DNA of 64,000 nt from Spirochaetia bacterium (GTDB lineage: Bacteria > Spirochaetota > Spirochaetia > UBA9216), in the NCBI GenBank assembly GCA_963675665.1, contig OY776510.1:3904001-3968000 (forward strand), in the 5' to 3' direction. This document shows, one piece after another, positions 3 through 19,910 of this stretch (positions are counted from its first letter, which is position 1; each line of letters begins with the position of its first letter). A program made the translations under genes and the position numbers. Under the pieces are notes generated by a model that worked only from the letters and a program-made list of their open reading frames with translations, was not told the origin of the DNA and did not search any database.

Positions 3-878
3 ACCGGTTCGACATGGAAAGGCCCAATCGGATCATTTCTTCTGGCGGTCCCCGCAGATTGGGACGGTGAGACACCTGGTCTTGAAAAGCTTATCGGTAC
101 AGACGGATTCAATGTATTCGGGGCCCGCGACTATGAACCGGCCCGCATCGAAACCTTCAGGTTTTATTCCTGGGATATGGATTACATGAGTCTCTATATC
201 TTTCGTGAAGAAACTTTTCCCGCAATGAAAAAAATGTGGCAGACCGGTTCAAGAGAGGTCATGCAGGAAATCAGACCCGTACAGGAGTTTGTCCGGACTG
301 TTTCCGCGTCATCATTTATCCGTGATCGTATCAATGTATATTGCGCGGACGGCGTGGTAGATCGCGCCGGATTCGATCCTGTCGCCGCTTTTGACGGTCT
401 GGACGAAACCTCATGGTGCGAGGGGGCCCCGGACGACGGGATTGGCGAATACCTTGAGTGCGTATTGACTGAGCCTGTGTGGGCACTGACGATTAAAAAC
501 GGTTTTACCCGATTCGCGGCTGAAAACTGGATGTTCGAATACGGAGATTTCGATGAATATATAAAAGACGACAGTCTCGGCCTTAAGGATTACTACAGAA
601 TGAACAATCGCGTAAAAACCCTTGAGATATCATCTTCAGGCGGGGAACCCGTGTACACGCTCGAATTGGCCGACAGGCGGGATTCACAGACTTTCAGCGG
701 TATTTTTCTGGAACCGGGCACATGGCGTTTCACAATTCGTTCCGTATATCCGGGGTCGAAGTGGAAAGATACATGTCTTGCGGAATTACGCTTTGTCGAA
801 AAGCCCTCGGTAAAAACTTTCAAAACATACCTGGATGACACATTCTTTCGGAAACACCTTGCGGGTTTCAGATATTAA
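3..878 (+). CDS. 5'-truncated surface/secreted protein: DUF4424-like region plus C-terminal NADase-type glycan-binding (discoidin-like) domain
   Basis: The frame is open from nt 3 (TGSTWKGPIG, a DUF4424-like motif) through the tracked ORF 177-878. The C-terminus has AFDG..TSWCEG..DGIGE, NNRVK and SVYPGSKWKDTCLAE motifs. Confidence 0.6.
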   Translation, partial: TGSTWKGPIGSFLLAVPADWDGETPGLEKLIGTDGFNVFGARDYEPARIETFRFYSWDMDYMSLYIFREETFPAMKKMWQTGSREVMQEIRPVQEFVRTVSASSFIRDRINVYCADGVVDRAGFDPVAAFDGLDETSWCEGAPDDGIGEYLECVLTEPVWALTIKNGFTRFAAENWMFEYGDFDEYIKDDSLGLKDYYRMNNRVKTLEISSSGGEPVYTLELADRRDSQTFSGIFLEPGTWRFTIRSVYPGSKWKDTCLAELRFVEKPSVKTFKTYLDDTFFRKHLAGFRY

Positions 879-1011
879 AAGGACTCAGCATAAGGAAGCG
901 CCGCAGCTTGCGAGGATGCTCATCTTCAACATCAATTATGTAATGTTCTTTTGCCCCGTCATATGGAAAACCACATTCTGTAAAAGAAAAGGGACTCCTG
1001 GCGCGCCAGTA

Positions 1012-1133
1012 CTGCAGAGGCGGAAGCTGATGTTGTTGTCGCGATTCGACGGATTGTTGTTGTTCCGGTTGGCACAACGCAGGTTATTACCTGAATTGTT
1101 CCAGTTACCGCCACGGTTCAAACGGTTACTGCC
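1012..1133 (-). ncRNA. DGR template repeat (TR)
   Basis: AAC/AAT-rich 122-nt copy of the 3' end of the 1293-2498 gene, aligned without gaps. About 30 mismatches, 21 of them at TR adenines. The 3' 16 nt (GCTTCCGCCTCTGCAG) are identical, then the sequences diverge (IMH/IMH*-like). Confidence 0.9.
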
Positions 1134-1176
1134 GTTTATCGACACCTTCCCATAATCGCTAAATTTTTTAGAAAGC

Positions 1177-1245
1177 CAGGGGGTTTACCCCCTGAACCCC
1201 CTTACAATGCCGTTCTTGCGCTCCCTTCGGGGCGCAAAGAACGGC
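1177..1245 (-). promoter_or_regulatory. Two GC-rich hairpins downstream of the VR (DGR target-recognition cruciform-like)
   Basis: GCCGTTCTTTGCGCCCC-GAA-GGGAGCGCAAGAACGGC (1209-1245) and CAGGGGG-TAAA-CCCCCTG (1177-1194), between the VR stop codon and the TR. Confidence 0.6.
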
Positions 1246-1292
1246 CAGGACAAAATGTAAAAAGGTAAAAAATAAAAAGGTTACGCCGATTT

Positions 1293-2498
1293 TCAATCGG
1301 CTGTCCTGCAGAGGCGGAAGCCGACGTAGTTGCCGCGAAGCGACGGATTGAAGACTTCCCGGGAGGCACAACACAAATATTCACTTGAATCTTCCCAGTT
1401 ACAGCCACGGCCCACACGGTAACCGCCACTTTCTGGTCCCGACGGATCTGTTTCAGACCCGCCGCTGTAGGCAGCATGCCAATCATAACACCATTCATAC
1501 ACATTGCCGCTCATATCCCGCAATCCCAAAGCATTGGCGGTTTTCAAGCCTGCTTCTTTGGTGCCAAAAGTCGGATCTCCACTGCTTCCACTATTGTTGC
1601 CGGAGTACCAGGCATAGTCGCTTATTTTATCAGGGTCTGTTTCATCGGTGTACACAGGACCGCCGCTTACATGATCTCCGCCGTTCCAGTTTGTACCGTC
1701 AATGTACCTTGCTGCGTACTCCCATTCTGCTTCGGTGGGCAATCGGTAACCGTTCTTGCTCCAGTCCACATACACAGCAGCACTGCTTGCAGCATCGGCC
1801 TTGGTATAGTCTGTGGTCAATCCGGCATCGGAATAATAAACCTGTTCAGTATCGGTTATGCTGTCATCCGCCTGGGTCAGGAGATTGCAGAACGCCGCCG
1901 CGTCATACCAATTCACGTAGTAGGCTGGATACTCAGCTCCCGCACCATATCCACTTCCGTCCGGGTCCGTCCCCGGCCAGGTGGTCAACCATACATCTTC
2001 CCATAAGCCCTGGGTAACCTCGGTTTCACCCATCCAGAAGTTTTTGGTTAACGTAACTTCCTGAGTTGTGCTTTCCACATCCTCGCCCATGGTAAAAGTG
2101 CCTCCGGAAGGCACATAGTGCATGTTGAAGTTGGCTGCATTGGCGGTGTGTAATATGGCAGCCCCTGCAATATATGAAAAGGTTGCCGTAACTTCCACTG
2201 CCGATGCGGGCATGGTAAAGGTTGCCGTGCCGCCGTCGCTGCTTATCGTTGCCGGGCTGATGCTGACCCCTGATGCACTTAACGCAACCTGCCGGCCGCT
2301 GTTAAGCGATGCTGTCAGGGTTACAGTGGCCCCCTCTGCTGCCTCGGATACATCGGCATTTAAAGATTCTCCTGATTCCGCTCCACTGGGGCTTACTGTT
2401 ACCGCGTAGGTTGTGGGTGTAGGATCATTCGGTGTGGGACATCCTGCTAAAAGCAGGATTCCTGCAATTGCAATCGCTGCTAGAATAATTTTTTTCAT
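1293..2498 (-). CDS. DGR target lipoprotein: lipobox, InlB-B/Ig-like repeat, FGE-sulfatase/C-type-lectin-fold domain with C-terminal variable region
   Basis: MKKIIL..LLLAGC lipobox; GTFTMG, ETEVTQ, YRLPTEAEWEYAAR, NALGLRDMSGNVYEWC and GFRLCR motifs; the C-terminus matches the TR. Start placed at ATG 2498 after a GGAG RBS. Confidence 0.9.
   Translation of the reverse strand: MKKIILAAIAIAGILLLAGCPTPNDPTPTTYAVTVSPSGAESGESLNADVSEAAEGATVTLTASLNSGRQVALSASGVSISPATISSDGGTATFTMPASAVEVTATFSYIAGAAILHTANAANFNMHYVPSGGTFTMGEDVESTTQEVTLTKNFWMGETEVTQGLWEDVWLTTWPGTDPDGSGYGAGAEYPAYYVNWYDAAAFCNLLTQADDSITDTEQVYYSDAGLTTDYTKADAASSAAVYVDWSKNGYRLPTEAEWEYAARYIDGTNWNGGDHVSGGPVYTDETDPDKISDYAWYSGNNSGSSGDPTFGTKEAGLKTANALGLRDMSGNVYEWCYDWHAAYSGGSETDPSGPESGGYRVGRGCNWEDSSEYLCCASREVFNPSLRGNYVGFRLCRTAD
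1306..1427 (-). repeat. DGR variable region (VR)
   Basis: Ungapped homologue of TR 1012-1133 with AAY codons replaced (TAC, GGC, GAA, GAT, TCC, GTC, TTC, CTT and others). Confidence 0.88.
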
Positions 2499-2577
2499 CT
2501 CTTCCTCCAATTATTATTTCAATTGGCGGCCACGGATAGCCGCCTCTTTATGGACTGTTTTTAGGGCGTGGTATTTC

Positions 2578-2725
2578 CGCTAACGCGCCAGGAATATGCG
2601 AAGTTGAAGTGAAGCCAAAGGAGTGTTTTGCCAATGAGCAAAACCGACTGCCCCTGCTCTGCTTCTCAGCAAGCTTCAATTTGGGTGTAGGCCGTATGGC
2701 CGAGCCGCATATTTGCTTGTTAGAT
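2578..2725 (-). repeat. attC site 1 (family A)
   Basis: Minus strand ATCTAAC...GTTAGCG, inner stem AATATGCG/CGCATATT; clearly homologous to the copies at 6679/9138, 12384 and 14959. Confidence 0.85.
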
Positions 2726-2881
2726 GCCGTTTCTTTCATGGTTGATTTATAGTGTTTTTGTCAAATACATGGATGTATTTGACACCATAATTAGTTTCAA
2801 AACTTTTGTCCTTAGTCAGAACTTAATGCTCCCTTTATCTCAGATATAAGCTCACCAATCTTTGTCTTTTCCTCTTCTGAT

Positions 2882-4089
2882 TGTTTAGTGAGAGTATTTC
2901 CCTGACACTCACCCCGAAAAATATATAATTTCATTATGCGGCAGTGCCGCCATTGTCCTCGTCTTTTTCTACTTCCTCAAGGAATACCTGAAAGGGTATT
3001 CTACCCTTCATATTGCGTCCTTGATGTGCTCGTTCATTATTGTAGTACTCCAGAAACTTATCCAGATCTTCCTGCATCTCAGATAATGATTCGTAATATT
3101 TTTCACGACCTTTAATTCTAAAATGCTCATCAAGTAAAGTTCTGTGAAGCCGCTCAACAAATCCATTACTTTGCGGTCTGCAGACCTTTGTTGTCCTATG
3201 CTCTATATCTTCAAGCTGAAGGAATAATTCGAAAGGATGATGGTCCGGTCTTCCGCAGTACTCACGTCCATTGTCGGTAAGCACATTCTTAACCTTCACA
3301 TTATGTTCCTCGAAAAAAGGCAGAACATCATTATTTATTACCTGAACTGCAGTCACCGGCAGCTTATTTGTATACAGCCTTCCCCAGGCATGACGACTAT
3401 GACAATCAATCACTGTTTGTAAATATATTTTCCCTATTCCTTTCAGATGTCCGACCATAAAGGTATCTATCGAAACGAGATAACCAGTATGCTTTGTTTC
3501 GATGTGTCTCTCTCTGAACTCAGGATTAAATCTTTCAAGTAGTTTTATCTGGTCATCATTAAGCTTGAATTTTTTGTTCTTCAATTTTTCTTCCAAGCGT
3601 AAAAGTCGCTGGTGGCGGGTTTCCATTTTATGTCTAACCCATACTCCACGGACCCCGCCGGAGCTTACATTCACACCCTTCAAAGCAAGCTGCTGAGAAA
3701 CTCTCAGACAACCATGAGTTGGGAACTCCAAACTATAATCCAGAATCTCTTTTTCAATTTCAGGTGCTACTCGATTTGGATGTGGATTCCGTGGTCCTGG
3801 TAAGCTGTCGATTAATCCCTGAGATCCGTAGGTTTGATAATTACGTCTTATCTCATAAAATTGCTGCCGGGAATAACCCATAATTCGACATGCCTTACTT
3901 ACATTTCCTAAATCTTCTGCAAGCTCTAACATACTCATCTTTCGTCTCGCAGCTTTCTGTGCTACAGTCTTGTTGGTGGCCATTTGCTCCTCCTGATAAA
4001 TGTTTTTGTGGTGAAATCATTATATCTTTCGGAGGTGTTTTGGCCACCTATTTTTTAGCCAACTGTCAGGTTAATACGATCACTGTTCA
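2882..4089 (-). mobile_element. IS481-family insertion sequence
   Basis: Imperfect terminal IRs TGTTTAGTGAGAGTATTTCCCTGACACT / TGAACAGTGATCGTATTAACCTGACAGT; flanking direct repeat TTCTGAT (2875-2881, 4090-4096). Confidence 0.9.
2934..3983 (-). CDS. IS481-family DDE transposase
   Basis: HTH (GNVSKACRIMGYSRQQFY) plus integrase core (IDTF, LTDNGREY, PQSNGFVERLHRT, YNNERAH). Confidence 0.95.
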   Translation of the reverse strand: MATNKTVAQKAARRKMSMLELAEDLGNVSKACRIMGYSRQQFYEIRRNYQTYGSQGLIDSLPGPRNPHPNRVAPEIEKEILDYSLEFPTHGCLRVSQQLALKGVNVSSGGVRGVWVRHKMETRHQRLLRLEEKLKNKKFKLNDDQIKLLERFNPEFRERHIETKHTGYLVSIDTFMVGHLKGIGKIYLQTVIDCHSRHAWGRLYTNKLPVTAVQVINNDVLPFFEEHNVKVKNVLTDNGREYCGRPDHHPFELFLQLEDIEHRTTKVCRPQSNGFVERLHRTLLDEHFRIKGREKYYESLSEMQEDLDKFLEYYNNERAHQGRNMKGRIPFQVFLEEVEKDEDNGGTAA

Positions 4090-4251
4090 TTCTGATAAAG
4101 AATCATCTAGAATTACTCTAACAGAATCAATATCTGAATATAATTGATCAATAAACTTTATATAATCAAAATCATTTTGTTCTTGACCTTCTATAATGCT
4201 AACACTTAATTCATCTTCATCAGGTTTCCTATAAAATTTAATTTCCATTAT

Positions 4252-6570
4252 TTACCCCCTGAAACTTTTAAGATTATATTTTTTTACTCTTTTTTTTATA
4301 GATGGTTTGCCACCGTCTGTAATTTCTGCAATATAATCAACTACACTTTTTGAGTTTATTTTACCTTCTAGAGCTTCTGAACGAATTATTATTTTTTCTG
4401 CACTTTCACACAAAATAATATTCTGAGCATCTCCTAACATTGGAATTGTAGCATTATGAGATACAAGTATAATTTGTTTTTTACTTTTAATATTTTTTAT
4501 TGCTTTTATTAATCCAACATTAATGTAATTTGTTGCTAAATTATCTTCTGGTTGATCAATAATTAATGGTGCAGTGTCACCTAAATATCCCAATATGAGA
4601 TCCAAAATAACTGATGTTTTCCATCCTGCACTTAATTCTTCAAAATTTTTACCTGAAGCGGTAGTGATACGATATTTTATCTTATTAAGTTTATCAAATT
4701 CATGATATATCTTTGATTTGAAATCATCATATGATTGTATTTTAGGATTTTGTTTTCGAAATTTATCAATATATAAATTTTCTGGACTGATTTCTTTAAA
4801 AGAATTAATTCGATTATTTGCTTTCAAATATATATTTAAGACTTCTAAAAACTTATCTTTCGTAAGTTGAAAATCATTTTCAATGAATAATTCATGATCC
4901 ATAACTTTTTCTTTTTCAGTTTTACATTTTATAGAGTATTTGGATATTTTTTCTAATGTATTATAAAAAATATCTAGTTGCCTTTTGTATTCAGATACTT
5001 TATTTATTAATCTTTCAAAATCCAATTTTTTACTTTGGTGTTTTTGATTTTCTAAACTTAGATTTCTATCAAATTCTTCTTTATAATCATTTATCTTTCC
5101 TCGAATGATATTCTCACTTATAGATATATTATATGCTTTTAAAAGCTTCTCTTCTAACTCATTAAAAATTGATTCGTCAATTTCAATAAATGGATTTTCC
5201 TCAATAAAACTTTTTATAGAAGTAAGATTATTCAAATGCTTTTGGTAAGTTAATTCTGGATATTCAATCTTTCTGATTGTATTGGAACTTGGAAGTAAAA
5301 GGGAAAAAACATTATGTTTGATTTTTTCAGTTAATACCAACCTAGAAATTACTGGAATTTGTTTAAAATCATGCTGTATGCTTTCAATATTCTCAATAGA
5401 ATCTATTAATGAATCTAGATCCTGTTTTAATCCTATTAAAGCGTCTCTTACCTTAGCAATAATCTCAGTATTCCCTGGAAAAACTTTTTTTATTATTGGG
5501 ATATCATCAATATCTTTTTTGCTATTTTCATGTATTAATTGAATTATATAATTTTGATCAATATAATGAGGAACTAAGCCTGACGGGTTCCTAATCTCTA
5601 TATCATTAACAGAAAATTTTTCATAAATTATATTTATTTCACTATTATTAAGCTTTCTAAACACTGAATCAACAAATAATGTCTTTCCACTAGAAGAACC
5701 ACCAATAACAACATTTAAGCCAGGAGAAAGCATAACATCTATATCAATAAATTCATTATTTAGCTTCACTTCACTTATAAATTCAGACCAGTGTTGGGGA
5801 GGTTCTTTAGAATATACCATTCTTGAGGATTCTGACAAAGCTAATCTTAAACCACTAAATGTTGGTTGTGAATAAATCCACGTAGGAATAAATTCACTTG
5901 CATTTGGATCCTTAGCGCTAGGATAATTACTTGGATTATAATTATCTGTACAAGTAACTAAATTTATGAACTCTCTAATACCAAGCCTATCAAAATATTC
6001 CAATGTATCTTGTAAGCCCCTTTCATTTCTTGCAGTAAATCCATCGAATTGATTGTAATAGATATTTCTTTCTAATATTGAATCATATCTGACACCAGTT
6101 TCAGTTGATATAGACTTATGAAATTGTTTATGATTTTGACCACCATGTGGTAGTAGTATAAAATCATAATTATCAAAGTTTCTAATTATTGTTTCAATAT
6201 TTAATTTAAAATCATCATCACCATCAATTATCTTATTTGGATACAAATTATCCAATATTTCATTTATATCATCTATTTCTGCTTCTGTAATATTATCTAT
6301 ATTGAAAAATATATGGCAATGATATAGAGGCTTGTTATCATAATTAAAAATGTGCAATTCTACACCTAAAACAACGTTTTTTGTTTTTTCTAATAATTTC
6401 ATATATGCAAGCTTATTTATCGTATTATGATCTGTTAAAGATATTAGAAAATCCGAATTTGCTGACACTTCAGATATTTTTGATAAAAGTAAATCTACAT
6501 TATATTCTTCATTAAGCTGATTAGGATTCTCTGAAGTGTGAATATGTAAATCTGTATAAATAGGTTTCAC
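4252..6570 (-). CDS. PHP-domain + ABC/SMC-like ATPase fusion (Ppl/TrlF-like; candidate anti-phage)
   Basis: DLHIHT, LTDHN, GVE and TDNY PHP motifs; Walker A GGSSSGKT; LSAG signature; IIDQPEDNL; VSHN. GTG start. Confidence 0.8.
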   Translation of the reverse strand: MKPIYTDLHIHTSENPNQLNEEYNVDLLLSKISEVSANSDFLISLTDHNTINKLAYMKLLEKTKNVVLGVELHIFNYDNKPLYHCHIFFNIDNITEAEIDDINEILDNLYPNKIIDGDDDFKLNIETIIRNFDNYDFILLPHGGQNHKQFHKSISTETGVRYDSILERNIYYNQFDGFTARNERGLQDTLEYFDRLGIREFINLVTCTDNYNPSNYPSAKDPNASEFIPTWIYSQPTFSGLRLALSESSRMVYSKEPPQHWSEFISEVKLNNEFIDIDVMLSPGLNVVIGGSSSGKTLFVDSVFRKLNNSEINIIYEKFSVNDIEIRNPSGLVPHYIDQNYIIQLIHENSKKDIDDIPIIKKVFPGNTEIIAKVRDALIGLKQDLDSLIDSIENIESIQHDFKQIPVISRLVLTEKIKHNVFSLLLPSSNTIRKIEYPELTYQKHLNNLTSIKSFIEENPFIEIDESIFNELEEKLLKAYNISISENIIRGKINDYKEEFDRNLSLENQKHQSKKLDFERLINKVSEYKRQLDIFYNTLEKISKYSIKCKTEKEKVMDHELFIENDFQLTKDKFLEVLNIYLKANNRINSFKEISPENLYIDKFRKQNPKIQSYDDFKSKIYHEFDKLNKIKYRITTASGKNFEELSAGWKTSVILDLILGYLGDTAPLIIDQPEDNLATNYINVGLIKAIKNIKSKKQIILVSHNATIPMLGDAQNIILCESAEKIIIRSEALEGKINSKSVVDYIAEITDGGKPSIKKRVKKYNLKSFRG

Positions 6571-6752
6571 ATAAGACTCCTTTATACTATATTTTTAATA
6601 ATCTAATTCAAGCCTCTTTCTTGCACGCCATGGACGGCGGGCTCTTACTTAAACACTCCCAACCATTAAAGAAATTGCCTATAACGTTCCGGGCATATGC
6701 GAAGTTGAAGCGCAGCCAAAGGAGTGTTTTGCCGTAAGCGGTAATTCTTCCC

Positions 6753-8285
6753 CTATGACTTTATCTGTTCAGCGGTCAGGTTGAATGGTAGCAGTTTTTC
6801 ATAATCTGCGGGTTCTTCACAGTACGGTAACTTGCGAAAAACATAGTAGAAGTAATCATAGACCGATAGCTTCTGCAATTTAGCAGATTCAACAAGACTG
6901 TAGAGTACCGCCGAAGATTCGGCTCCATGTTCGGTGTCGGAAAACAACCAGTTCTTCCGTCCGATTACAAACGGCCGGATTGCATTTTCAGCAATGTTGT
7001 TCGACGGAGTAAGCAGCGGATCTTCCAGGTATAACTTTAACTGAACCCAGTTATCAAGCGTGTATGATATCGCCTTCCCGAAAGCCATTGTAGGCGGAGT
7101 CCCTGCTGCATGTTTAGTAAGCTGTTTGAATAAAGAATCAAGGATAGATCCGGCCTGGTTGGCTCGATGCTTCTGAAAGCCTTTTTTGGAATATTGCTCG
7201 CGCAGGGCTTCAAGCTCGAACAGGTCTTTAATCAATTCAAGTATATGTTTTACTTCCGGAGATTTAGACATCTCCCAGTATTTATAAAAATACCTTCTGG
7301 CATGCGCCCAACATAAAACATGACGAGGTCCATCATGTCCATCTTTTCGCAGCCTTTTCAAAGCAGTGTGATAGGCCTCATAATCATCAGTCTGCAACCA
7401 ACCGGTATAACCTTGCAGAAAATCATACGGTATTTCATGAGAACGGCCTGTTTCATACTGAAACACTACCGATTTTTTATCAGGTTTTCCGCCAAGAAAG
7501 ACCCACATCCAGGATTTATCCTGTGCTTTGCGACCTTTTTCTTTCAAAACCTGTACCCGGGTTTCATCGGCATTTATTATCGGCCCGTTTTTAATATTAT
7601 CTTTAAGCAACTCATAAATCGGTCTGCATTTATCAGCGCACTTTATTGCCAATGTGCTCAGTGTTGCCCTTGGAATATCTGCACCAATTGTATTCAGTCT
7701 CTTGCTCTGACGGTAGAACGGGAGAGCATATTCAAACTTCTCATTTATGATCCACGCGAGAAGGCTTTCATCGGCAATGCTCCCGGCGATCAGATGTTTA
7801 ATCCCTTCAGCAGTCTGCACCCCCGAAGTTTCATCGGTGGTTCCTTCACAATTTCTGCAAACATATTTTTTCTTTATCTCACGCCTGACTACTACTTTCG
7901 CAGGAACTATGCATAGCCGTTCGGAGACATCTTCACCAATACAAATCTTCTCAGTTCCGCAAGCGCATGTTTTATCTTCCTCATCAATATCGTATTCAAT
8001 AATTTCTCGGGGAAGATCTTCTGACAGAGCTTTTCTACCGACACCCTTACGAACAGTTTTCGTGTGAGCTTTTACTTCACGGGTCTCAGTTTCTATTTCT
8101 TCGTTCTGCTCAAATGCCGTATCCTCTGCCTCGTTGAAAAGTGACGCCTGTTTTTTATCTTCATTCGTGAGCTTCTCTGATTTTGTTCCGAAATGAAGAG
8201 ATTGCAAAAGCTGGACCTGCTCTTCTAATCGGGCAATTTTTATTTTTAATTTCTCATTCTCTTCAAGCAAAGCCTGGCTGTTCAT
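6753..8285 (-). CDS. tnpC: IS66 transposase TnpC
   Basis: FGTKSEK, zinc ribbon, ADET, CWAHARR, NNIAENAIRPFVIGRKNWLF. Confidence 0.95.
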   Translation of the reverse strand: MNSQALLEENEKLKIKIARLEEQVQLLQSLHFGTKSEKLTNEDKKQASLFNEAEDTAFEQNEEIETETREVKAHTKTVRKGVGRKALSEDLPREIIEYDIDEEDKTCACGTEKICIGEDVSERLCIVPAKVVVRREIKKKYVCRNCEGTTDETSGVQTAEGIKHLIAGSIADESLLAWIINEKFEYALPFYRQSKRLNTIGADIPRATLSTLAIKCADKCRPIYELLKDNIKNGPIINADETRVQVLKEKGRKAQDKSWMWVFLGGKPDKKSVVFQYETGRSHEIPYDFLQGYTGWLQTDDYEAYHTALKRLRKDGHDGPRHVLCWAHARRYFYKYWEMSKSPEVKHILELIKDLFELEALREQYSKKGFQKHRANQAGSILDSLFKQLTKHAAGTPPTMAFGKAISYTLDNWVQLKLYLEDPLLTPSNNIAENAIRPFVIGRKNWLFSDTEHGAESSAVLYSLVESAKLQKLSVYDYFYYVFRKLPYCEEPADYEKLLPFNLTAEQIKS

Positions 8286-8323
8286 AAATAAATTTTAACA
8301 TGATTAAATTCCGGTGTGAAGCA

Positions 8324-8668
8324 TTAAACGCGGGAATATGATAATTCTTTATGCGCGTTGAAGAAATCTATCCCGTCCAGCAGCATCTTAAGTTCCTCGA
8401 ATCTGATTTCTCTGGCCTCTTCTTCTGTTTCAGGCCAGGGAAACTTGTTCTTCTCCAACCGTTTCTGCCATAGGCAGAATCCGTTTCGATCCCAGTAGAC
8501 AATTTTCAAAAGTTTTTGTTGGCCGTTACAGAACAGAAACAAACTTTTCGAAAACGGGTCATTATGCATTACGTTCTGAATCTGAAGGCTCAATCCGTTT
8601 ACCCCTTTTCTTAAATCCGTTTTGCCGGGCCGTATAAAATATCGGTAATCTGTATAATCGAAAATCAT
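8324..8668 (-). CDS. tnpB: IS66 accessory protein TnpB
   Basis: TDLRKGVNGL, LKIVYWDRNGFCLWQKRLE. Confidence 0.93.
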   Translation of the reverse strand: MIFDYTDYRYFIRPGKTDLRKGVNGLSLQIQNVMHNDPFSKSLFLFCNGQQKLLKIVYWDRNGFCLWQKRLEKNKFPWPETEEEAREIRFEELKMLLDGIDFFNAHKELSYSRV

Positions 8669-9000
8669 TCAAGTTCTCCGATTATTCTCAGAACTGATTT
8701 CAGCTCGGCTTCATCAAACCCGGCAGTTATTGATATTAAAAACTTTTTGGACTTCAATACAATTGGTGCAGCTGCTACAGATTGAACGGGTTTTATTTCT
8801 ATTATCTCTGAGCTCTTTGACAGGTTCATACCGAACCGTTTTCTGTGCTTATAGAAAGTATTTGGATGAATTTCAATCTCTTTGCAAAACTCCGGAATTG
8901 ATTTTCCGCTCATCTGTTGTTGTTCAAATATTTCTTCCCAGTTTTTGATTATCTTCTTCATTTCATTCCTCCGTGATTCTTTTCCCGGAGGATAGTACAT
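8665..9000 (-). CDS. tnpA: IS66 accessory protein TnpA
   Basis: SGKSIPEFCKE...TFYKHRKR HTH; overlaps tnpB. The true start may be the internal MKKII. Confidence 0.85.
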   Translation of the reverse strand: MYYPPGKESRRNEMKKIIKNWEEIFEQQQMSGKSIPEFCKEIEIHPNTFYKHRKRFGMNLSKSSEIIEIKPVQSVAAAPIVLKSKKFLISITAGFDEAELKSVLRIIGELE

Positions 9001-9195
9001 TTTCAGATTTTCGCAAGAAGGAAAGAATTACCGCTTACGTTTTGCCAAAGAGCAAAACCGACTGTCTTGTTCAACTTCTTCGCAAGCTTCAATTTGGACG
9101 AAGGGCGAATGCCCGTAGTCGCATATGCCCTGTTATAAGCTGTGTTTCCGCTCTTCGACCAGGCCGCACGGCGGAGTCAAGGTCTGGTCTCTTCA

Positions 9196-12100
9196 TTATC
9201 GCTCCCCTTTTTTATCTACGCTTATATTTTCAATTCTATGTATTTCTAGCATTTCAATCCCAAATTCTTCACATATTTGCTGTTTATATTTGAAATCTTC
9301 AATTTCAAACATATATAAATATTTTCGAACTGTCTGTGATAACACATTTTTGGCTAAGGGATTGTGATCCAAATCTTTATTTAATCGTCTTAGTAAAGCT
9401 ATAGGAAATTTAATAAAATGATCTACTTTTATTACAGCATCAATTAATCTGTATGCTGTAGATTGATTAACCTTCAATAATCTTTCAAAAGTCACTGATA
9501 GATTTTCTGAACCAACAAATTGTGAAACTCTAGATATAAAAGTATAAGTAAGGATCGAGCAAATTCTTGAAAGATAAGCTATTGCATAAGCTTCAACAAT
9601 TTCACGATCTTCAGTATCGTATACGGGTTGAGTTTGCATGATCTTACTTATCTCAGTAGCTATCTTCTCAGGATTTTCCATAATTGATCTTAATATTAAA
9701 CCAAGAGGTTTTAATAGAAGAAGATAAGTATTTTCTACCAATTTTAATTTTTCATCTCCTTCTAATGATGCATAAGAATTTTTAACAACTTGTCCAATTA
9801 TTTCAGCCAACTTTATCGAATAGGATATTTTATCAACAATTGTAAGCTCTTCTTCAATATCAATACAACCATCACAATCCTCTTCCTTTTTTTCCTTATC
9901 TTCTATTTCATCTCTTTGCTTTAAGTCTGAGTTTCTAGCATCTTCAACATTAATATGATTTAAAACCAATTTAGGCATCTCATTGTAGATTTTATTTAGC
10001 TTTTTAATATCATCATCAAGTCTTATAGGCTCTTCTTCACTAAATAATAAAGTTGCGGCATTTAATAATGAATCAATAATAATTGGATCTTTACTCAAAT
10101 AAGACAGAAACATCAAAATATTTGAATAATTTTCATTGTGTGGTTTTGATGCCATATTTGAAATTGTCTCTTTGATTTTTGTCTTAGATATTTTATCTGA
10201 CATATATTTTGCTGTAAAAAAGAAGAACATATATTTATATGCAAAAAAGTAACGACCATCTTTATGTAATAATACTTCTGACTGAAGAGTTTCTTTCAAT
10301 ATTGTATCAATTCTATTTTGAATATCATGTCTCTCTGCATGGTCGTAACAGAAGCTCTCAAAATCAAGATCATCCAAATACTTATGGTCGTTATTAAACA
10401 TTGTAAACGCAAGAGAAGATAAAAAATTATTAAATGCATTAATTGCTTCTGGAGATGGATTACTATTTTTCAATGAATCTAAAATTAATGTCTGATAATA
10501 ATAACCATATGAACTCTGATGAAAATTAGTAGGATCGATTTCTGTGATATTTTGTAATAGTACTAGAATAATCAATGGATATGAAGGAGTTAAATTTTTA
10601 CCAACTATTTTATTTATAATATCTGTAACATTATCTAATTCTCTTAAATGTTCATTTATACTGTTATAAGGATCATTATTCAAGGAATACCATTTTTTAA
10701 TTAATAAGGATCGTCTAAAATTCCCAAATTCTTTAATTTGGAATAGTTTAAATCCATTGTATATAATTGAAGCCTCTGGCTCACTTCCTGTTAATTCTTC
10801 AATCTCTAATAGATCATGTGAAGTGAGTACGATATTTATAAAAATATCCTTAAGAGAATCCATATATTTCCTTCTGAATCTCCTAGGAATACTGGATTCA
10901 TCAAAATCATCAATCAATATAACTTTCTTATCATTATCGATTGTATCGAATTCACTTTCCTTTATATTTTTATATTGTAATAAAGCTTCTCTTCTAATTA
11001 GCGATTGGAGCTCTTTATTATTTGTAGATTTAATTTTAGCTCCATCTATCCAAATCGGCATATACCCATCATGCAACAATGTACGATAGAGCTTTTTTAA
11101 TACTGTGGTTCTACCACTTCGACCTTGCCCTAAAATTATGTATTTCGAACCTGTCTTTTTATTAAAATTGAGTGCATTCTCACTATTAATAACTGAAGAT
11201 TCATAAGATACTCTTTTTAGCGGATCTGGATTCAAATGATGAAAATCTGGATATACAAATATATCATCTAATTTTAAATTAGTTATTTGTGGATGATGTA
11301 AATTTGCCCCTATATCATTAATAAAATTCTTTATCTCTGCTTTTAAAGATAAATAACTTTCATTTTGTCTGGGAATAATAAGAGATATTTGTTCATCATC
11401 AACATTATTTTTAATAAGTTCGCCCTCTTTTATATCAAGTATATATTTTTCGAGCTTATAATTTCCTTCACTATTTTTCTCTATGAGATATGAATAAAAA
11501 GCATTATCTTTAGAATCTAAGAAACTGCTTCCATCAGAATAATATGTAATTTGAGATTTTTCATTGCTTCTCATACTACTTCCTAACCAATGCTCATGGC
11601 CAGTTAAAACAATATTTGAACAACTTTCAATATAATCTCTTAATCTCTTAGAACTCCAAGATTTAAACCAATTTAAAGGGTGATGCATTAAAGTTATTGA
11701 AATACCATTGCTAGGTTGCATATATTCTGATATCAGTTGCTCTGGCAGAATTATCTTTCCTTGTACCTCCGGGTTCGAAGTCATCCAAGCACTATTTATA
11801 GAAAATATATTTAATACATTATCATCAACATTAATGTTTTTTTTCCATATTATTTGGTTGTCTAGAAATGCTCCCGACATAGAATTAAATTCATTAATAA
11901 AGTCAAAAAAAGATCGTTGAGGTTCCGTACATATTTCAATTGTTTCATTATCAAGTTCTTCACTATCATCTTCATTACTTATAATATCACGTATCAATCT
12001 TTCTCTTAGTTTATTTTTTTTCTCAAAATAACAATCATGATTACCGGGAACAATAATTATTTCAGCTCTCGGTTTTCTTAGTTTATTATATTCGTCAAGT

Positions 12101-12309
12101 AAATCAGATAATAAAATATAGGCATTCAAATAACCATCAATATTACTTTGATTAGAAATATCACCAGTGATTAATAGAAGAACTAAATCACATGAATCTG
12201 CCAAATTTTTAGTAACTGTAAAAATATTGTTAAAATATGATTTCAATTCATCAGTTATTTCTCCGATATGCAAATCACTTAAATGCAAAATTAAATACTT
12301 CATATGCAC
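9196..12309 (-). CDS. Calcineurin-like metallophosphoesterase + STAND/NACHT-type NTPase (candidate anti-phage)
   Basis: HLSDLH, TGDI, PGNHD, MHHP, LTGHEH; P-loop GQGRSGRTT; Walker B VILIDDFD; helical C-terminus. Confidence 0.8.
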   Translation of the reverse strand: MHMKYLILHLSDLHIGEITDELKSYFNNIFTVTKNLADSCDLVLLLITGDISNQSNIDGYLNAYILLSDLLDEYNKLRKPRAEIIIVPGNHDCYFEKKNKLRERLIRDIISNEDDSEELDNETIEICTEPQRSFFDFINEFNSMSGAFLDNQIIWKKNINVDDNVLNIFSINSAWMTSNPEVQGKIILPEQLISEYMQPSNGISITLMHHPLNWFKSWSSKRLRDYIESCSNIVLTGHEHWLGSSMRSNEKSQITYYSDGSSFLDSKDNAFYSYLIEKNSEGNYKLEKYILDIKEGELIKNNVDDEQISLIIPRQNESYLSLKAEIKNFINDIGANLHHPQITNLKLDDIFVYPDFHHLNPDPLKRVSYESSVINSENALNFNKKTGSKYIILGQGRSGRTTVLKKLYRTLLHDGYMPIWIDGAKIKSTNNKELQSLIRREALLQYKNIKESEFDTIDNDKKVILIDDFDESSIPRRFRRKYMDSLKDIFINIVLTSHDLLEIEELTGSEPEASIIYNGFKLFQIKEFGNFRRSLLIKKWYSLNNDPYNSINEHLRELDNVTDIINKIVGKNLTPSYPLIILVLLQNITEIDPTNFHQSSYGYYYQTLILDSLKNSNPSPEAINAFNNFLSSLAFTMFNNDHKYLDDLDFESFCYDHAERHDIQNRIDTILKETLQSEVLLHKDGRYFFAYKYMFFFFTAKYMSDKISKTKIKETISNMASKPHNENYSNILMFLSYLSKDPIIIDSLLNAATLLFSEEEPIRLDDDIKKLNKIYNEMPKLVLNHINVEDARNSDLKQRDEIEDKEKKEEDCDGCIDIEEELTIVDKISYSIKLAEIIGQVVKNSYASLEGDEKLKLVENTYLLLLKPLGLILRSIMENPEKIATEISKIMQTQPVYDTEDREIVEAYAIAYLSRICSILTYTFISRVSQFVGSENLSVTFERLLKVNQSTAYRLIDAVIKVDHFIKFPIALLRRLNKDLDHNPLAKNVLSQTVRKYLYMFEIEDFKYKQQICEEFGIEMLEIHRIENISVDKKGER

Positions 12310-12383
12310 TCCATATACATTCTTTATTCTTCATCGCCCGTCGGCCGGAGGTCCGGGCGTCTTCCTCTTAGCGGAAACATTGC

Positions 12384-12532
12384 TTATAACGTTCCCAGCA
12401 TAACCGAAGTTGAAGCGCTACCAAAGGAGTGTTTTGCCATAGAGCAAAACCGACTGACCATGCTCTGCTACTTTCGCAAGCTTCAATTTGGGTGGAGGCC
12501 GAATGGCCGGAACCGGTTATGGTGTGTTAGAT
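12384..12532 (-). repeat. attC site 3 (family A)
   Basis: Minus strand ATCTAAC...GTTATAA; stem CATAACCG/CGGTTATG. Confidence 0.88.
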
Positions 12533-12659
12533 GCCGTTTCTGTCTTGGTTGGTTCTATGATGAATTTGTCAAATACAAGGATGTATTTGACAGAGCAATT
12601 GATTTCATAATTTTTTACTTTCTCCCCCTTTAAGGAATATGATACTAGGTCGTATCTCT

Positions 12660-14819
12660 TCAAGATGTTATAGCTTTTACATCATTATATAAAACACATA
12701 GGTGTTTATCTGACATGTCTATTATAGGTTCAAACATAAATGAATTAACATGGATATTCTCTGGAGTCATCAAATTAACTCTTTCTAATATCTTTGTATT
12801 CTCATTATCATCAACAAATTTTCTTTTAAATTCTTTAAATAGTTTACCAGTTTGGTTTTTTTTAATTCTACTAACAAAATCTCTATCATCTATTTTATTT
12901 ATCATAAAATCTTCAGCAAAAATGCGAATAGCCATGGATAAAACTATTTTTTTTTCTAAACAAAACCCAGATGAATCATCACTATTCACATATACTTCTG
13001 CAGTTTCACAAATAATATCTTGTATATTTTTATTATCATCTAAATCAAATTTGAATTCTATATCATTAAAAAATGATTCATAAATTTCTTTGATTTTACC
13101 AACAGTGATATTCTCACTATTTTCTTTTATATGTAATACTGAAGTTAAATCGCTAAAAATACTATTATTTCCAGTATATTCCGATAAATTCCTTGTAAAA
13201 GGTATTGATGCTATAAGCTTACTTGCATTGTCTAAATTCTTTTTCCAGAAAATAAACGGATTTGCAATATATGAATATTTTAATTTTTCAAGTTTGATAT
13301 TTCCTTCATCTCGCTCAGCAATATAAGAGCACATATATCGGTTCATTCCGATTCTGTCTTGTATCGTTCTAAAAAAATCATAATTATGCGTTAGAATAAT
13401 CATATAAAAATCATGATAATTACAAATATCTTTTAAGTATTCAATTATTGCGTATTTATTCTTATAATCAAATGAATCTGCAATATCATCTACAATAATT
13501 AAGTTTTCTGTACCTTTCTTTTTTCTTGATTCTATTTCAAAGATAATATTTAGCAGATATAGTGTTCTTCTTTCTCCTTGACTTAGTATTTTAATTAATA
13601 CGTCTTCATCAATTGGTTTATTTCCATGATAATTATATTTAATACTAGGGGCTACATCTTGAAGAACTGTTTCATCTTTATTCTCTATCTCTATATTATA
13701 GGGAACATAAAAGCGTCTATTAAATATATCTAATACTTTTTCCCAATCGGTTTTTTCTTCTTTTGCAGTTTCTACAACTTCTCTAATTTTTTCTTTATTC
13801 GTTCTGTATATATCAATTATTTCAGTATATTCAATTATCTTTTCAAAAATAAATGATAATACTACTTTTCTCTTAAATTCTTCAGGTTCACCTAATTCAG
13901 TAATTATTTCTTGATTTTCAAATAAGTATTCTCTAAGCGTTCTTAATTGTGCATTTGAAACTTTTTTATCAATTTTTTCAAATAGCTTTGAAATATCTTC
14001 ATCTTCTAATATTCTTTCTTTCTCTTCTTTAATAATCTCACTAAATGTCTCTTGATCGGAGATTTCTGTTTTATCACCATTATTATTTAAATTTATAGAA
14101 TGTTCTGCTTTAAAGAAACCATTGTCTGTTAATTGTTTATGGACTGTTGTTGCATTATAATGATTAAAATCTTTCTTCAAATATGTTGAATCTTGGATTA
14201 GCTGGTCATATCTATTTATATATTCACCTATTTCAGATTTAACAGATTTAATAAAATCAAAATTCTTTTGCTCGAATAAAATACCATAGTCGATAATGTC
14301 ATTATTGATTAAATTGTCTTTTTTGATTTCTGTTTCAAGTGTTAAAAGTAATTCTAAAAAATTATCATTATTAAACGTTTTCTCAATTTCATCAGTAATA
14401 TTTGCAGTTCTTTTTAATTTGAATAATGGTGTTATTGCTTCAATAAATTTTTCTTTCCCCTTATTGATATCCTCATATAATGCTTCATAAATTGATCTTA
14501 ATTCTTCATTAACAAGCAAGACTGTCATAGCATCTGATTTATAAGTTCTATCATAGGGATTAATTACAAAAACTTTATTAAAATCAATAATATTGTTTGA
14601 TTCATCTACAATAGTACGTAATGATTCCTTATCATTGTAAACTTCATCCTTACTATTATTACCTTTTGAAAAATCATCAAATGTTCTTGAAAAAGATGTT
14701 TTCATTACACCATTAGGAGCATATATAACATATACATTTTTATTATCGCTAAAATCAAATTCAAATTCTAAATCTTCAATTCCATAACAGTTCTTAAAAT
14801 CAATTTTTAATTTCTCCAC
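12660..14819 (-). CDS. SMC/ABC-type ATPase with coiled coil (AAA_13/RloC-like architecture; candidate defence)
   Basis: YAPNGVMKTS P-loop, LSQGERR signature, IVDDIADSFD Walker B, LTHN H-loop, C-terminal MTPENIH. GTG start. Confidence 0.7.
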   Translation of the reverse strand: MEKLKIDFKNCYGIEDLEFEFDFSDNKNVYVIYAPNGVMKTSFSRTFDDFSKGNNSKDEVYNDKESLRTIVDESNNIIDFNKVFVINPYDRTYKSDAMTVLLVNEELRSIYEALYEDINKGKEKFIEAITPLFKLKRTANITDEIEKTFNNDNFLELLLTLETEIKKDNLINNDIIDYGILFEQKNFDFIKSVKSEIGEYINRYDQLIQDSTYLKKDFNHYNATTVHKQLTDNGFFKAEHSINLNNNGDKTEISDQETFSEIIKEEKERILEDEDISKLFEKIDKKVSNAQLRTLREYLFENQEIITELGEPEEFKRKVVLSFIFEKIIEYTEIIDIYRTNKEKIREVVETAKEEKTDWEKVLDIFNRRFYVPYNIEIENKDETVLQDVAPSIKYNYHGNKPIDEDVLIKILSQGERRTLYLLNIIFEIESRKKKGTENLIIVDDIADSFDYKNKYAIIEYLKDICNYHDFYMIILTHNYDFFRTIQDRIGMNRYMCSYIAERDEGNIKLEKLKYSYIANPFIFWKKNLDNASKLIASIPFTRNLSEYTGNNSIFSDLTSVLHIKENSENITVGKIKEIYESFFNDIEFKFDLDDNKNIQDIICETAEVYVNSDDSSGFCLEKKIVLSMAIRIFAEDFMINKIDDRDFVSRIKKNQTGKLFKEFKRKFVDDNENTKILERVNLMTPENIHVNSFMFEPIIDMSDKHLCVLYNDVKAITS

Positions 14820-14958
14820 AGTTTCCTTCTCTTATAATTATTTTTCCTTAATATTTAAAAATCAGCAGATTTACCAATAATATTATTCAATCCTTCTTCA
14901 TACCCGCCACGGACGGCGGGCTCTTCCTTAAACAATCCCAACCAAGACAGAAATTGCC

Positions 14959-15105
14959 ATCTAACGGCCCGGGTTAAGCGAAGCTGATGCGCAACTTAAG
15001 GAGTGTTTTGCGAATGCGCAAAACCGACTGGCCCTGCTCTACTTCTTCGTCAGCTTCAGTTTGGGTGGAGGCCGAATGGCCGGAACCGCTTAACCATTGT
15101 TAGAT
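14959..15105 (-). repeat. attC site 4 (family A)
   Basis: Minus strand ATCTAAC...GTTAGAT; stem GGTTAAGCG/CGCTTAACC. Confidence 0.88.
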
Positions 15106-15336
15106 GCCGTTTCTTGGTTGGTTGAAGAATAAATTGGCAAAATACACGGATGTATTTTGCAACACAACCAATTTATTAATATTTCACTTCTCTTTCTCTA
15201 TCCAGAATCATGAATATAGATTTTGACTACTCCAAAACCTTTGTTAAATGTCTGTTTTACCTGACCGCACGGCGGAGCCAAGGTCTGGCTCTAATTTTAA
15301 AAATATATTTCTTATTGCTTTTTACAACACATAATA

Positions 15337-15540
15337 CTATAAGTTCTCAATTATTCGTTCAATTTCATAATCAATCAATCCTGATTTTAAATGAATATTG
15401 TTTTCTGATATATAATTCAAGATAGCATCTTCACTGATAGATTCTGGAATTAATGGCTCCATTTCCCTAATTGCTGAACTAGGAATACTAAATTCTGAGA
15501 GAATTGATGTATTTGTATTTTTGTATTTCATGGATAACAC
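15337..15540 (-). pseudogene. Probable gene remnant in a decayed cassette
   Basis: Short AT-rich ORF co-oriented with the cassettes, followed by a cassette-trailer hairpin (15262-15292) that resembles 9157-9192. Confidence 0.3.
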
Positions 15541-15736
15541 AAAGCCATTTTGGAACCTTATATTTAAACCATTTTTTTGATTACATTAAAAACAAATTGT
15601 ATTGATTCATTGATAATAACTATATAGAAATCCAAAATCAGATCAGGATTTTGGGTTATATCTTTGAACTTTTTGAGTTTAAAGAATCAATAAATCACCT
15701 GAAAGCAGAATCACCGACCGAAGAGCTGGCAATAAT

Positions 15737-15862
15737 GCTGAACGTACTCCTAATCTGGTGGCAGATGCTTATGTATGGACGGCACAATCATTAAAATGAT
15801 TCCATGAGCTGTTCACCTTATCAGCGTGATTCCTGCAAATCCTTCAGATAGAACCGTTAGAT
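15737..15862 (-). repeat. Candidate degenerate attC (different family)
   Basis: ATCTAAC about 24 nt after the beta-lactamase stop; plus strand GAAC-8nt-AATCTG...CAGATA-5nt-GTTA, a spacing like attC1. Confidence 0.35.
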
Positions 15863-15885
15863 CTCAAGCAATACTTAAAATTTTC

Positions 15886-16701
15886 CTACTCAACAATTTT
15901 TAATTCTTTTAATATTTGCAGCATTACTGTTTTTGCTTCACCATATTTACCCGGAAAATCAGATTTATTTTTTTCAAGATTTGTAGAAATAAAATAGACA
16001 TTGCTATTTGTCTCGATATATCCTACAAACCAGCTATAATAAACATTATCAAGCCTCATAACCGTTCCGGTTTTTCCTGATAATTTATAATTTTCATTTT
16101 CATCTAATGCTAAAAGCTCTTTTACTATATTCTGCGATCTCTTTGAAAATGGCAAATCCAATGAGTATAATTTCTTTATAAGTTCAATTTGCTCCATTGC
16201 AGATATTTTCATATTTCCTTCTAACCAGAAGATATCCACTCCGGAATCAATATTCTGATTACCGTAATTTAATTTATCCAGATATTCCTGCATTCGCTCA
16301 AACCCGATCCGCCTTGCAATTTCCTGATAATACCAGACTACAGAGCTTTTCATTGCACTTTCTAGGGTTTGATTTTTATTCCAGGATTTAAATTCATATT
16401 CTGTTCTATCCCATTCAATTTGATAATCTTTGTCAGAGGCAACTCCTGATTCCAAGGCAATGAGTGAATTATAAATTTTAAATGTGGAGGCCGGCAAAAT
16501 ACCCGATTCAGCCAAGTCTTCGTTATAAATAGAATATATTTTTTTATTTTGATCATAGATTATTATGCAACCCTGAGAATCAATTGCCTCAAAATATTCT
16601 CCAAAATCTTGAACCACAATTTTTTTTCCACTTTGACAACTTGTAGTCAGCATGATGAAGCCAAGTGAAATAATGATTAATATTGATTTATACTTTTTCA
16701 T
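15886..16701 (-). CDS. Putative class D (OXA-like) beta-lactamase, lipoprotein
   Basis: STFK, SVV, YGN, FWL and KTG motifs; signal peptide ending LTTSC. Confidence 0.85.
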   Translation of the reverse strand: MKKYKSILIIISLGFIMLTTSCQSGKKIVVQDFGEYFEAIDSQGCIIIYDQNKKIYSIYNEDLAESGILPASTFKIYNSLIALESGVASDKDYQIEWDRTEYEFKSWNKNQTLESAMKSSVVWYYQEIARRIGFERMQEYLDKLNYGNQNIDSGVDIFWLEGNMKISAMEQIELIKKLYSLDLPFSKRSQNIVKELLALDENENYKLSGKTGTVMRLDNVYYSWFVGYIETNSNVYFISTNLEKNKSDFPGKYGEAKTVMLQILKELKIVE

Positions 16702-17717: not shown

Positions 17718-17749
17718 GAAGACTGAATTTTCTATATAGATCTTCGGAT

Positions 17750-18673: not shown

Positions 18674-18819
18674 ATTAAAAGCTGTTATATGTCAATTACC
18701 ACTTTATAAATTTTATATTTCTCATAGCCCGTCGGCCGGAGGCCCGGGCTATTTCTTCCTTATTTTACACCCATCAACGCTATATTTCTAACATTTATAT
18801 TTTTTCTCTATTTTCGTGC

Positions 18820-18965
18820 ATTTAACGACGATTTCAGCTGCGCACTCGATCCTGGAGCAGAGCGGAAGGAATTGGCGCGGTTTTAGAGTGTAGCGAGATC
18901 AGCGCGAAACGTCTCTGCTAAAACCGAGACAATAGACGGCGACTGCTGCATTTGTCATGTCATAC
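18820..18965 (-). repeat. attC site of a second family (B)
   Basis: Minus strand GTATGAC...GTTAAAT; stems GACGATTTCAGC/GCTGCATTTGTC and CGGTTTTAG/CTAAAACCG. The end TCCGTATGAC matches the cassette start GTTATACGGA at 19789. Confidence 0.65.
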
Positions 18966-19640: not shown

Positions 19641-19891
19641 TTAACCTCATTTTCTTATTACATATTTGAAATCATACATATATTTCATATTTATTAATTT
19701 TATCAACTATTTCACGAAGTCTGAATCACCCCTAAATGACCCACATATTTGTTACATTCCTTAAAGATGAATTTATAATTCCGTATAACATATTATGCTT
19801 AGTGTTTTACTTAAATACTATTAAATTCTTCTCCTGCCAGCCATGGATGGCAGGCTCTTCCTTAAAAAATCCCAACCAAGAAAGAAATTGC

Positions 19892-19910
19892 ATCTAACTC
19901 AGTTTTATAC
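19892..19910 (-). other. Candidate attI core
   Basis: GTATAAA-ACTGA-GTTAGAT resembles attI1 CCCTAAA-ACAAA-GTTRRRY. It is the first cassette start and has no attC hairpin upstream. Confidence 0.55.

Follow-up and report, generated by a model that had tools for sequence, protein, structure and literature searches.

Integrons and diversity-generating retroelements (DGRs) are the two best-known bacterial systems that make adaptive variation on demand, the former by shuffling whole genes and the latter by changing a few codons within a binding site. Where at least two attC sites lie close together with no integron integrase nearby, they form a cluster of attC sites lacking integron integrases (CALIN), and such integrase-less clusters were reportedly described by Cury et al. 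in 2016. An account of group IIC-attC introns (PMC4424553) presents retroelements that home into attC sites as targets, and two further accounts place DGRs as mobile cargo in Bacteroides integrative and conjugative elements (ICEs; bioRxiv 10.1101/2024.11.15.621889) and beside Tn7 in Vibrio sp. RC586 (PMC3521204). In the latter, Schillinger et al. (2012) speculated that DGRs could co-opt the integron system. The DGR of Treponema denticola, with its variable protein TvpA, is described with no link to an integron in the accessible portion of PMC4891356, and a search of full-text literature, with subscription journals and supplements outside it, returned no published description of an attC-bounded DGR in the text that could be reached. 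The present analysis concerns a window of 64,000 nucleotides (G000:C1:3904001-3968000) in a Spirochaetia genome, G000, which is a single 5.15-Mb contig, 96% complete; the named relatives of the proteins encoded in the window are from Spirochaetia such as Marispirochaeta, Spirochaeta and Treponema. Window positions 976-2583 hold a DGR remnant directly behind the last attC site of an attC array, and we consider it probable that this segment is the 5' two-thirds of a DGR that came in as an integron gene cassette and was later cut short and inactivated.

All features of the locus lie on the minus strand and are read from high to low coordinates. The unit and its two edges comprise the following, where VR and TR are the variable and template repeats and RT is the reverse transcriptase.

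2578..2725, minus strand: terminal attC site of 148 nt, with R'' ATCTAAC at 2725-2719, L boxes at 2705-2716 and 2593-2600, and R' GTTAGCG at 2584-2578
2583..2584: 5' boundary of the DGR unit, at the G/TT crossover of R'; homology to the G263 unit (see below) begins here and the sequence upstream is unrelated
2499..2583, minus strand: cassette-type leader, with a hairpin at 2525-2544 followed by a ribosome-binding site
1293..2498, minus strand: target lipoprotein gene, intact, 401 aa, with a signal peptide and lipobox ending in Cys, an InlB-B-repeat-like region and an FGE-sulfatase (C-type-lectin-fold) domain
1306..1430, minus strand: VR, 125 nt at the end of the coding sequence, followed by only the final codons
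1285..1301, minus strand: hairpin of 17 nt spanning the stop codon, immediately past the VR
1177..1246, minus strand: two G+C-rich hairpins (1209-1246 and 1177-1194) within the 169-nt VR-TR spacer
1012..1153, minus strand: TR, with an AAC-codon-rich core at 1012-1136 and a conserved 5' flank at 1137-1153
976..1011, minus strand: first 36 nt of the post-TR spacer, conserved with G263:C70 and G162:C193; in intact relatives it leads to an HRDC gene and an RT
975..976: truncation junction, where the DGR spacer is fused to a TfoX_N gene fragment
868..975, minus strand: 3' fragment of a TfoX_N-family gene, about 35 codons and a stop, with the 5' part missing

The remnant resembles the T. denticola DGR in having a lipoprotein target with an FGE-type C-lectin fold, a VR at the C terminus of that target and an AAC-rich TR. 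The target matches the Pfam families FGE-sulfatase (1e-37, residues 135-401 of the 405-aa frame) and Flg_new_2 (3.5e-5), and its best solved relative is T. denticola TvpA itself (2y3c, E = 9.5e-30). The alignment of TR and VR is free of gaps, with 294 nt of offset, and the 125-nt core of the pair contains 32 mismatches, 22 of them at TR adenines, which is essentially the 21 of 30 given in an earlier description of this DNA made from the sequence alone (the original prediction), where VR, hairpins and TR had likewise been placed after the target. Adenines make up 30% of the TR, and the bias towards them has a binomial p of 9e-6. This adenine pattern, with a VR at the C terminus of a C-lectin/FGE-fold protein, marks the element as a DGR. 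Ten of the 87 non-adenine TR positions also differ from the VR; we read these differences as decay, because an active DGR would overwrite them, and in the intact relative in G263 there are none, all 20 of the 20 core mismatches lying at A. Neither TR nor VR has another copy in the G000 genome. The 17-nt hairpin after the VR occupies what we take to be the position of the DGR target-recognition hairpin and may have the role that such a hairpin has in BPP-1; a similar stretch follows the G263 VR. The ends of the window VR and TR diverge as would be expected for putative target-recognition elements, namely the initiation of mutagenic homing (IMH) element and the hairpin. A contig from the source-like sequencing run X1 has a single VR form, identical to that of the window; contigs drop rare variants, and this observation is uninformative on activity.

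The T. denticola DGR and the window copy differ at the 5' end, where the window unit starts at an attC crossover. Specifically, it begins at the G/TTRRRY crossover of the preceding attC site, in the orientation of the array. This terminal attC site was recognized by nhmmer with E = 4.7e-53 (match 2565-2735), and its fold brings together paired R boxes and an L stem. The target gene had been predicted to start about 85 nt after the GTT of the last attC site, in the cassette orientation, and its likely ATG at 2498 indeed lies 86 nt past the G of R', on the same strand as the other cassette genes. Its leader hairpin, which the original prediction had described as a GGA-loop hairpin shared with other cassette leaders, has a 6-bp G+C stem and a loop with TCCGTG on the coding strand and is placed 40 nt past R'; comparable hairpins were found in three other cassette leaders at 39, 43 and 40 nt from R', which bears that description out. 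A variant with a CCTCCGG loop is present in 2 further leaders in the window and in 10 of the 52 cassettes of the main integron of G000, and one window leader whose hairpin has an imperfect stem was left out of the scoring. The background frequency of such hairpins was 108 in 5000 random 140-nt windows. An Rfam scan of window positions 1-24000 (E <= 1) gave no match, and the repeats and hairpins of this part therefore stand outside described RNA families. In a scan for promoters and terminators, counts were not above those in shuffled sequence.

At the other end the unit is cut. Homology of the post-TR spacer to G263 and G162 ends at 976, where homology to a TfoX_N paralogue starts: the DNA of the TfoX fragment is 84% identical to a paralogue elsewhere in G000 (full gene 3751351-3751731, match 3751439-3751496, Pfam TfoX_N 4e-7). 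The two partners share a few bases at the junction, a pattern suggestive of illegitimate recombination. Neither the window nor the 20 kb on its left contains an open reading frame (ORF) with an RT or accessory domain; the interval between VR and TR and the sequence past the TR are without ORFs, and an accessory gene of the Avd or HRDC type is not present at the locus. A genome-wide search of G000 with PF00078 returned only six identical group II intron maturase ORFs (RVT_1 and GIIM). In a tblastn search of G000 the DGR RT of the family relative G009 matched only the same six ORFs, at 28% identity. The DGR RT of G263 matched nothing in G000 at 1e-40. The six group II intron copies, with identical Pfam scores, lie at 0.83, 0.96, 1.09, 3.29, 4.21 and 4.88 Mb, and none of them is in an attC array. 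The window element is like group IIC-attC introns in being a retroelement physically tied to an integron attC, but unlike them it is cargo bounded by cassette sites, and the six introns of G000 itself lie outside the arrays. Compared with the T. denticola DGR, the window copy is without RT and accessory gene and is cut after the TR. The original prediction of a DGR module in a cassette position therefore stands for the G/TT start and the cassette-type leader; the RT, the accessory gene and an attC site of its own are absent, and the module ends 36 nt after the TR.

The target gene, the VR, the stop-codon hairpin and the TR with its 5' flank are all intact, as they would be if the pair were still being diversified by an RT supplied in trans. 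That reading is close to refuted by the lack of any DGR-type RT in the 5.15-Mb contig, by the loss of the conserved spacer after its first 36 nt and by the ten non-adenine mismatches. The window remnant itself is ordinary decay, and the interest of the locus is in the cassette-borne DGR lineage to which it points, of which one intact and three partial examples were found.

The expectation for the ends of a cassette in this genome can be taken from its main chromosomal integron (G000:C1:4417886-4526315, 108 kb). It comprises an IntI gene at 4525383-4526315 (TIGR02249, 392 bits, cut-off 265) and, by nhmmer, 52 attC sites of one family (family 1, about 138 nt, minus strand) spread over 4417886-4524336 with one 29-kb attC-free gap. 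In 44 of its 51 successive pairs, the cassette's own R'' is perfectly complementary to the TTNNNN directly behind the G of the preceding R', which is what site-specific cassette recombination predicts.

A DNA search with the TR region across 401 genomes of the class found related TRs, including those on contigs G263:C70 and G162:C193. G263 belongs to another Spirochaetia family, and its contig C70 carries, in order, an R'-like site, a hairpin leader, a target gene, a VR, a TR, the spacer, an HRDC gene, an RT gene and an attC site. The five bases that come after the 5' site, GTTATAG, agree with those at this place in the window, and the sequences upstream of the GTTA are unrelated between the two loci. 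The leader hairpin starts 39 nt after the G of GTTATAG and is identical to that of the window at 19 of 20 positions. The target is a 349-aa FGE lipoprotein (FGE 1.8e-30), the accessory and RT genes match HRDC at 7e-18 and RVT_1 at 7e-22, and the window TR is 75% identical to the G263 TR, flank included. The DGR of G009 likewise carries an HRDC gene, and in having an HRDC accessory gene and an RT the intact relatives of the window unit agree with the T. denticola DGR. About 130 nt past the RT stop codon of G263 lies the attC site (C70 4213-4311), a 99-nt imperfect palindrome with R'' CGCTAAC, a 12-bp L stem and R' GTTAGGC (fold z = -3.3). The site belongs to a genuine attC family: homologues with other flanks occur in G328 (88%), G364 (83%), G419 (partial) and at G000:3512689-3512786, and among four sequences (G263, two of these three genomes and the G000 site) 6 of the 27 predicted pairs show compensatory double changes. 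The G263 R'' is complementary at 7 of 7 positions to the window boundary GTTAGCG. By the rule kept in 44 of 51 pairs of the main integron, it therefore has the expected look of the lost attC of the window unit. The original prediction had proposed searching relatives for an intact attC-type unit with complementary ends, and the unit of G263:C70 answers to that description. In an empty-site search of 21 genomes of the family of G263, no relative with both flanks joined was found.

In the light of these observations, the most likely ancestor of the window remnant is a complete DGR that was mobile as an integron cassette. The idea of a DGR as an integron cassette is thus supported for the lineage and not as a working system at the window. 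The same division applies to the earlier claim that cassette mobilization couples shuffling to retrohoming, which survives as a lineage inference from one intact example and fails for the window locus.

Three further relatives retain parts of the unit. On G162:C193 (L273, 1-830) there is a second DGR wreck with no RT, in which an IS3-like ORF is fused to an FGE fragment with an in-frame stop; it also has a VR-like body that runs into a TR-type end, and beyond the conserved spacer comes an attC-like site of 59 nt (z = -4.1). G452:C227 has the leader, the hairpin and a target homologue behind a degenerate R' (ATT for GTT), and no matched TR or RT. The third relative comes from the unrelated metagenome run X5, which belongs to a different study from X1. 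Its contigs match the window at about 90% identity over the TR and 36 nt of spacer and also include the end of the VR, the leader and portions of the gene; they are unalignable in the VR body, and 128 other letters replace window positions 1170-1252 in the VR-TR spacer. They diverge from the window at 2585 upward and at 976 downward. At 976 their 30-letter end continues the conserved G263/G162 spacer instead of TfoX, and the 30 letters beyond 2585 may be laid out like another attC arm.

The G452 locus is the kind of sequence expected if a deletion had once joined a resident DGR target to an empty cassette leader, the fusion then spreading by ordinary descent and the G263 attC being a stray single site. 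Single attC sites without arrays do occur, and this too would suit leader capture of that kind. We consider it very unlikely. The junction of leader and target is common to G000, G263, G452 and X5, which represent different families or samples, and the fusion would therefore have to be old and horizontally transferred anyway; leader capture also leaves the match between the G263 R'' and the window 5' end unexplained.

A cassette origin of the DGR is to be seen against the array in front of it, whose attC sites, cargo and insertions are listed here in order of increasing coordinate.

2934..3983, minus strand: IS481-family transposase gene (NF033577, 256.6 bits, cut-off 224), in the cassette before the DGR, between the ATPase gene and the attC site
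4252-6570: TrlF/Ppl-like ATPase, cassette cargo, anti-phage or candidate defence
6671..9143, minus strand: split family-2 attC, with halves at 9039-9143 and 6671-6734 (HMM positions 6-111 and 103-166) and IS66 genes at 6753-9000
9196-12309: DS8 anti-phage protein, cassette cargo (882 bits, cut-off 790)
12371..12541, minus strand: family-2 attC, R'' ATCTAAC, R' GTTATAA
12660-14819: PDC-S46 candidate defence protein, cassette cargo (E = 9.5e-246)
14950..15115, minus strand: family-2 attC, R'' ATCTAAC, R' GTTAGAT
15886-16701: class D beta-lactamase family gene, 271 aa (NF012161, 266 bits, cut-off 250), upstream of a GDPD gene and a LuxR-type gene
18812..18960, minus strand: attC of family 1, the main-integron family (nhmmer E = 9.8e-28)

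The terminal attC site belongs to a second family (family 2, about 150 nt), of which nhmmer found four full copies and one split copy in the genome, three of the full copies and the split one in the window. Inside the split site sits an IS66-family element with TnpA, TnpB and a third ORF (Pfam IS66 families), and the two halves of the attC share 9 profile positions, as a target-site duplication would give. A degenerate attC lies near 19900. With the two halves of the split site counted singly, six sites are clustered from 2578 to 18960, no integron integrase was detected in or near the window or within 0.6 Mb of it, and the only IntI above cut-off is that at G000:4525383-4526315; the array is therefore an integrase-less attC cluster and has the make-up of a CALIN. 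The cargo, which also includes small enzymes besides the IS481 and IS66 elements, is a set typical of cassettes. Like sedentary chromosomal integrons and CALINs, the array has co-oriented cassettes, imperfect-palindrome attC sites with R'', L'', L' and R' boxes, adherence to the R''/R' rule (kept in two of the three testable window pairs) and anti-phage and class D beta-lactamase genes. It differs from them in its last unit, which is a multi-part retroelement with no attC of its own instead of a single promoterless gene, and in its long family-2 sites, whose conserved flanks carry extra hairpins.

These flanks are conserved on both sides of the family-2 sites (2735-2812, 12543-12620 and 15112-15189 on one side, and leaders at 6597-6679, 14876-14958 and 19810-19892 on the other). 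About 30 nt ahead of R'' there is a hairpin with a TCC(A/T)TG loop, and about 40 nt past R' there is another, with a TCC(R)TG loop. The stretches of roughly 20 nt that flank the two R boxes on the outside are mutually complementary, and the family-2 palindrome therefore reaches past the canonical attC. An attempt to fold a mixed alignment of both attC families with RNAalifold was discarded, since the families were misaligned and only 7 pairs resulted. Both families also occur in a second cluster at G000:C1:3511450-3523000, which adjoins a gene for a 355-aa tyrosine recombinase. The IntI model aligns to this protein in two pieces (positions 4-169 and 235-314); the stretch between them, presumably the place of the IntI-specific insertion, is missing.

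Array and DGR remnant lie together in a 65.7-kb block (window -43080 to 22594, G000:3860920-3926594) that is absent from G004, a genome of the same genus in which both backbone flanks of the island are joined within 650 bp; the block is therefore specific to G000 among the genomes compared. Its left 44 kb contain transporter, regulator and enzyme genes, with no attC detected. The original prediction had named, as the finding that would overturn it, homologous DGR loci at the same chromosomal position with no attC. The closest homologues proved to be non-syntenic, and the G004 position lacks the whole block.

Several observations weigh against a cassette origin. No attC site was found from window position -43080 to 2500, either with the two nhmmer profiles (E <= 0.01) or in a fold scan above background, and over the 45.7 kb on the left of the unit there is not one occurrence of the expected R''. 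With no 3' attC in the window, it is therefore not demonstrable that the window copy ever had one. The attC calls come from nhmmer profiles built from the window and genome and from whole-site fold scans, not from IntegronFinder; whole-site folding was used because a scan by arm-duplex energy missed known window sites. The third testable cassette pair of the window violates the R''/R' rule, and rearrangement near the end of the array is therefore likely. A single intact example was found, and it has weaknesses of its own: GTTATAG matches the complement of the unit's own R'' at 5 of 7 positions only, there is no attC upstream of its 5' site, and the two integron integrases of G263 are on another contig than the DGR unit. 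The X5 contigs have a depth of 3.1-3.7 and 30-letter consensus ends. Among 22 DGR RT loci examined, of 24 in 20 of the 401 genomes, a hairpin leader together with a clear attC occurs in G263 only, and DGR cassettes, if real, therefore form a small lineage. Finally, the ten closest target homologues in genomes (47-68% by tblastn, 50-71% by other scoring) lack a nearby TR or DGR RT as well as any attC of either G000 family, which indicates that the target gene family is mostly ordinary chromosomal cargo; for two of the ten, G005 and G010, the TR self-search was made at the locus only and RTs were sought genome-wide.

Much of this is what would be expected if the array simply ended beside a DGR remnant that had come by another route, such as a rearrangement mediated by an insertion sequence, and the DGR had never been a cassette. 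To the missing 3' attC and the absent R'' can be added the IS481 and IS66 elements within 7 kb, the last cassette pair off the R''/R' rule, the G005 and G010 homologues, which stand without attC at ordinary sites in backbone regions syntenic to other parts of G000, and the 21 of 22 DGR RT loci of the class without clear cassette features (G221 being ambiguous). We nevertheless regard such a coincidence of neighbours as unlikely. Homology to both G263 and X5 starts or stops exactly at the G/TT crossover, the leader hairpin lies at the offset typical of cassettes, and the intact G263 unit ends in an attC whose R'' is the 7 of 7 complement of the window boundary.

Eight closer protein relatives within the class (49-68% by tblastn) showed no TR and no DGR RT within 10 kb, a TR search in five near genomes at E <= 10 gave chance-level matches only, and an order-level search returned the same 11 genomes only. 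An RT fragment in G005 proved to be of the group II intron type. Searches of genome contigs and metagenome contigs with the target found only relatives of <=40% identity (80 and 75 loci, respectively), and neither attC family was detected in the 80 genome-contig loci or in the loci of the relatives, which the attC scan covered, the 75 metagenome loci standing outside it. G221 (L309, G221:C1:2207070-2215181) carries a related DGR with a 627-aa target and an RT frame apparently split in two; a T-rich post-VR motif occurs twice in that genome, and there may be a second target. A tandem 48-nt palindromic repeat after the G221 RT was considered as an attC and set aside as too short and too ambiguous. 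The window target is closer to homologues from other families (G056, G102 and G145; 66-68% by tblastn, 70-71% by other scoring) than to that of the same-genus G005 (61% and 64%, respectively), and this excess of cross-family over same-genus identity suggests horizontal transfer of the lipoprotein gene.

The history that would connect these observations begins with a complete cassette of about 3.4 kb, consisting of leader, target, VR, TR, HRDC gene, RT gene and attC. An integron integrase would have inserted this ancestor behind the attC site at 2578-2725, and a later illegitimate recombination would have removed everything past the first 36 nt of the spacer, including the HRDC and RT genes and the cassette's own attC. 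With no RT there would be no new cDNA, and the VR would therefore have frozen; the TR/VR pair would since have drifted, acquiring its ten non-adenine differences, and the lipoprotein would now be an ordinary surface protein of fixed sequence.

More broadly, and tentatively, we propose that complete DGRs of about 3.4 kb (target, TR, HRDC gene and RT gene) are in circulation among marine and sediment Spirochaetia as true cassettes, open to excision and insertion by IntI, that arrays keep frozen variable-protein genes after the RT half is lost, and that the hairpin leader belongs to an enlarged module at the cassette end. DGRs carried by phages, ICEs and transposons resemble the window unit in being cargo of a mobile genetic system; unlike those cases, the boundaries identified here are themselves cassette boundaries, and the accessible text of those accounts contains no attC-bounded DGR. 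If the proposal is correct, a cassette-bounded DGR would be a new route of DGR mobility beside phages, ICEs and transposons, and it would make an unusually large integron cassette, multi-gene and partly non-coding. It would also account for TvpA-like lipoproteins being closer between Spirochaetia families (66-68%) than within a genus (61%) by tblastn. For annotation, DGR finders anchored on the RT miss frozen TR/VR remnants of this kind, and non-adenine mismatches can be used to date them. For G000 the message is modest, namely that the lipoprotein is intact and no longer diversified; for the Spirochaetia as a whole, an integron could, if the proposal holds, acquire, shuffle or lose an entire module of targeted hypermutation.

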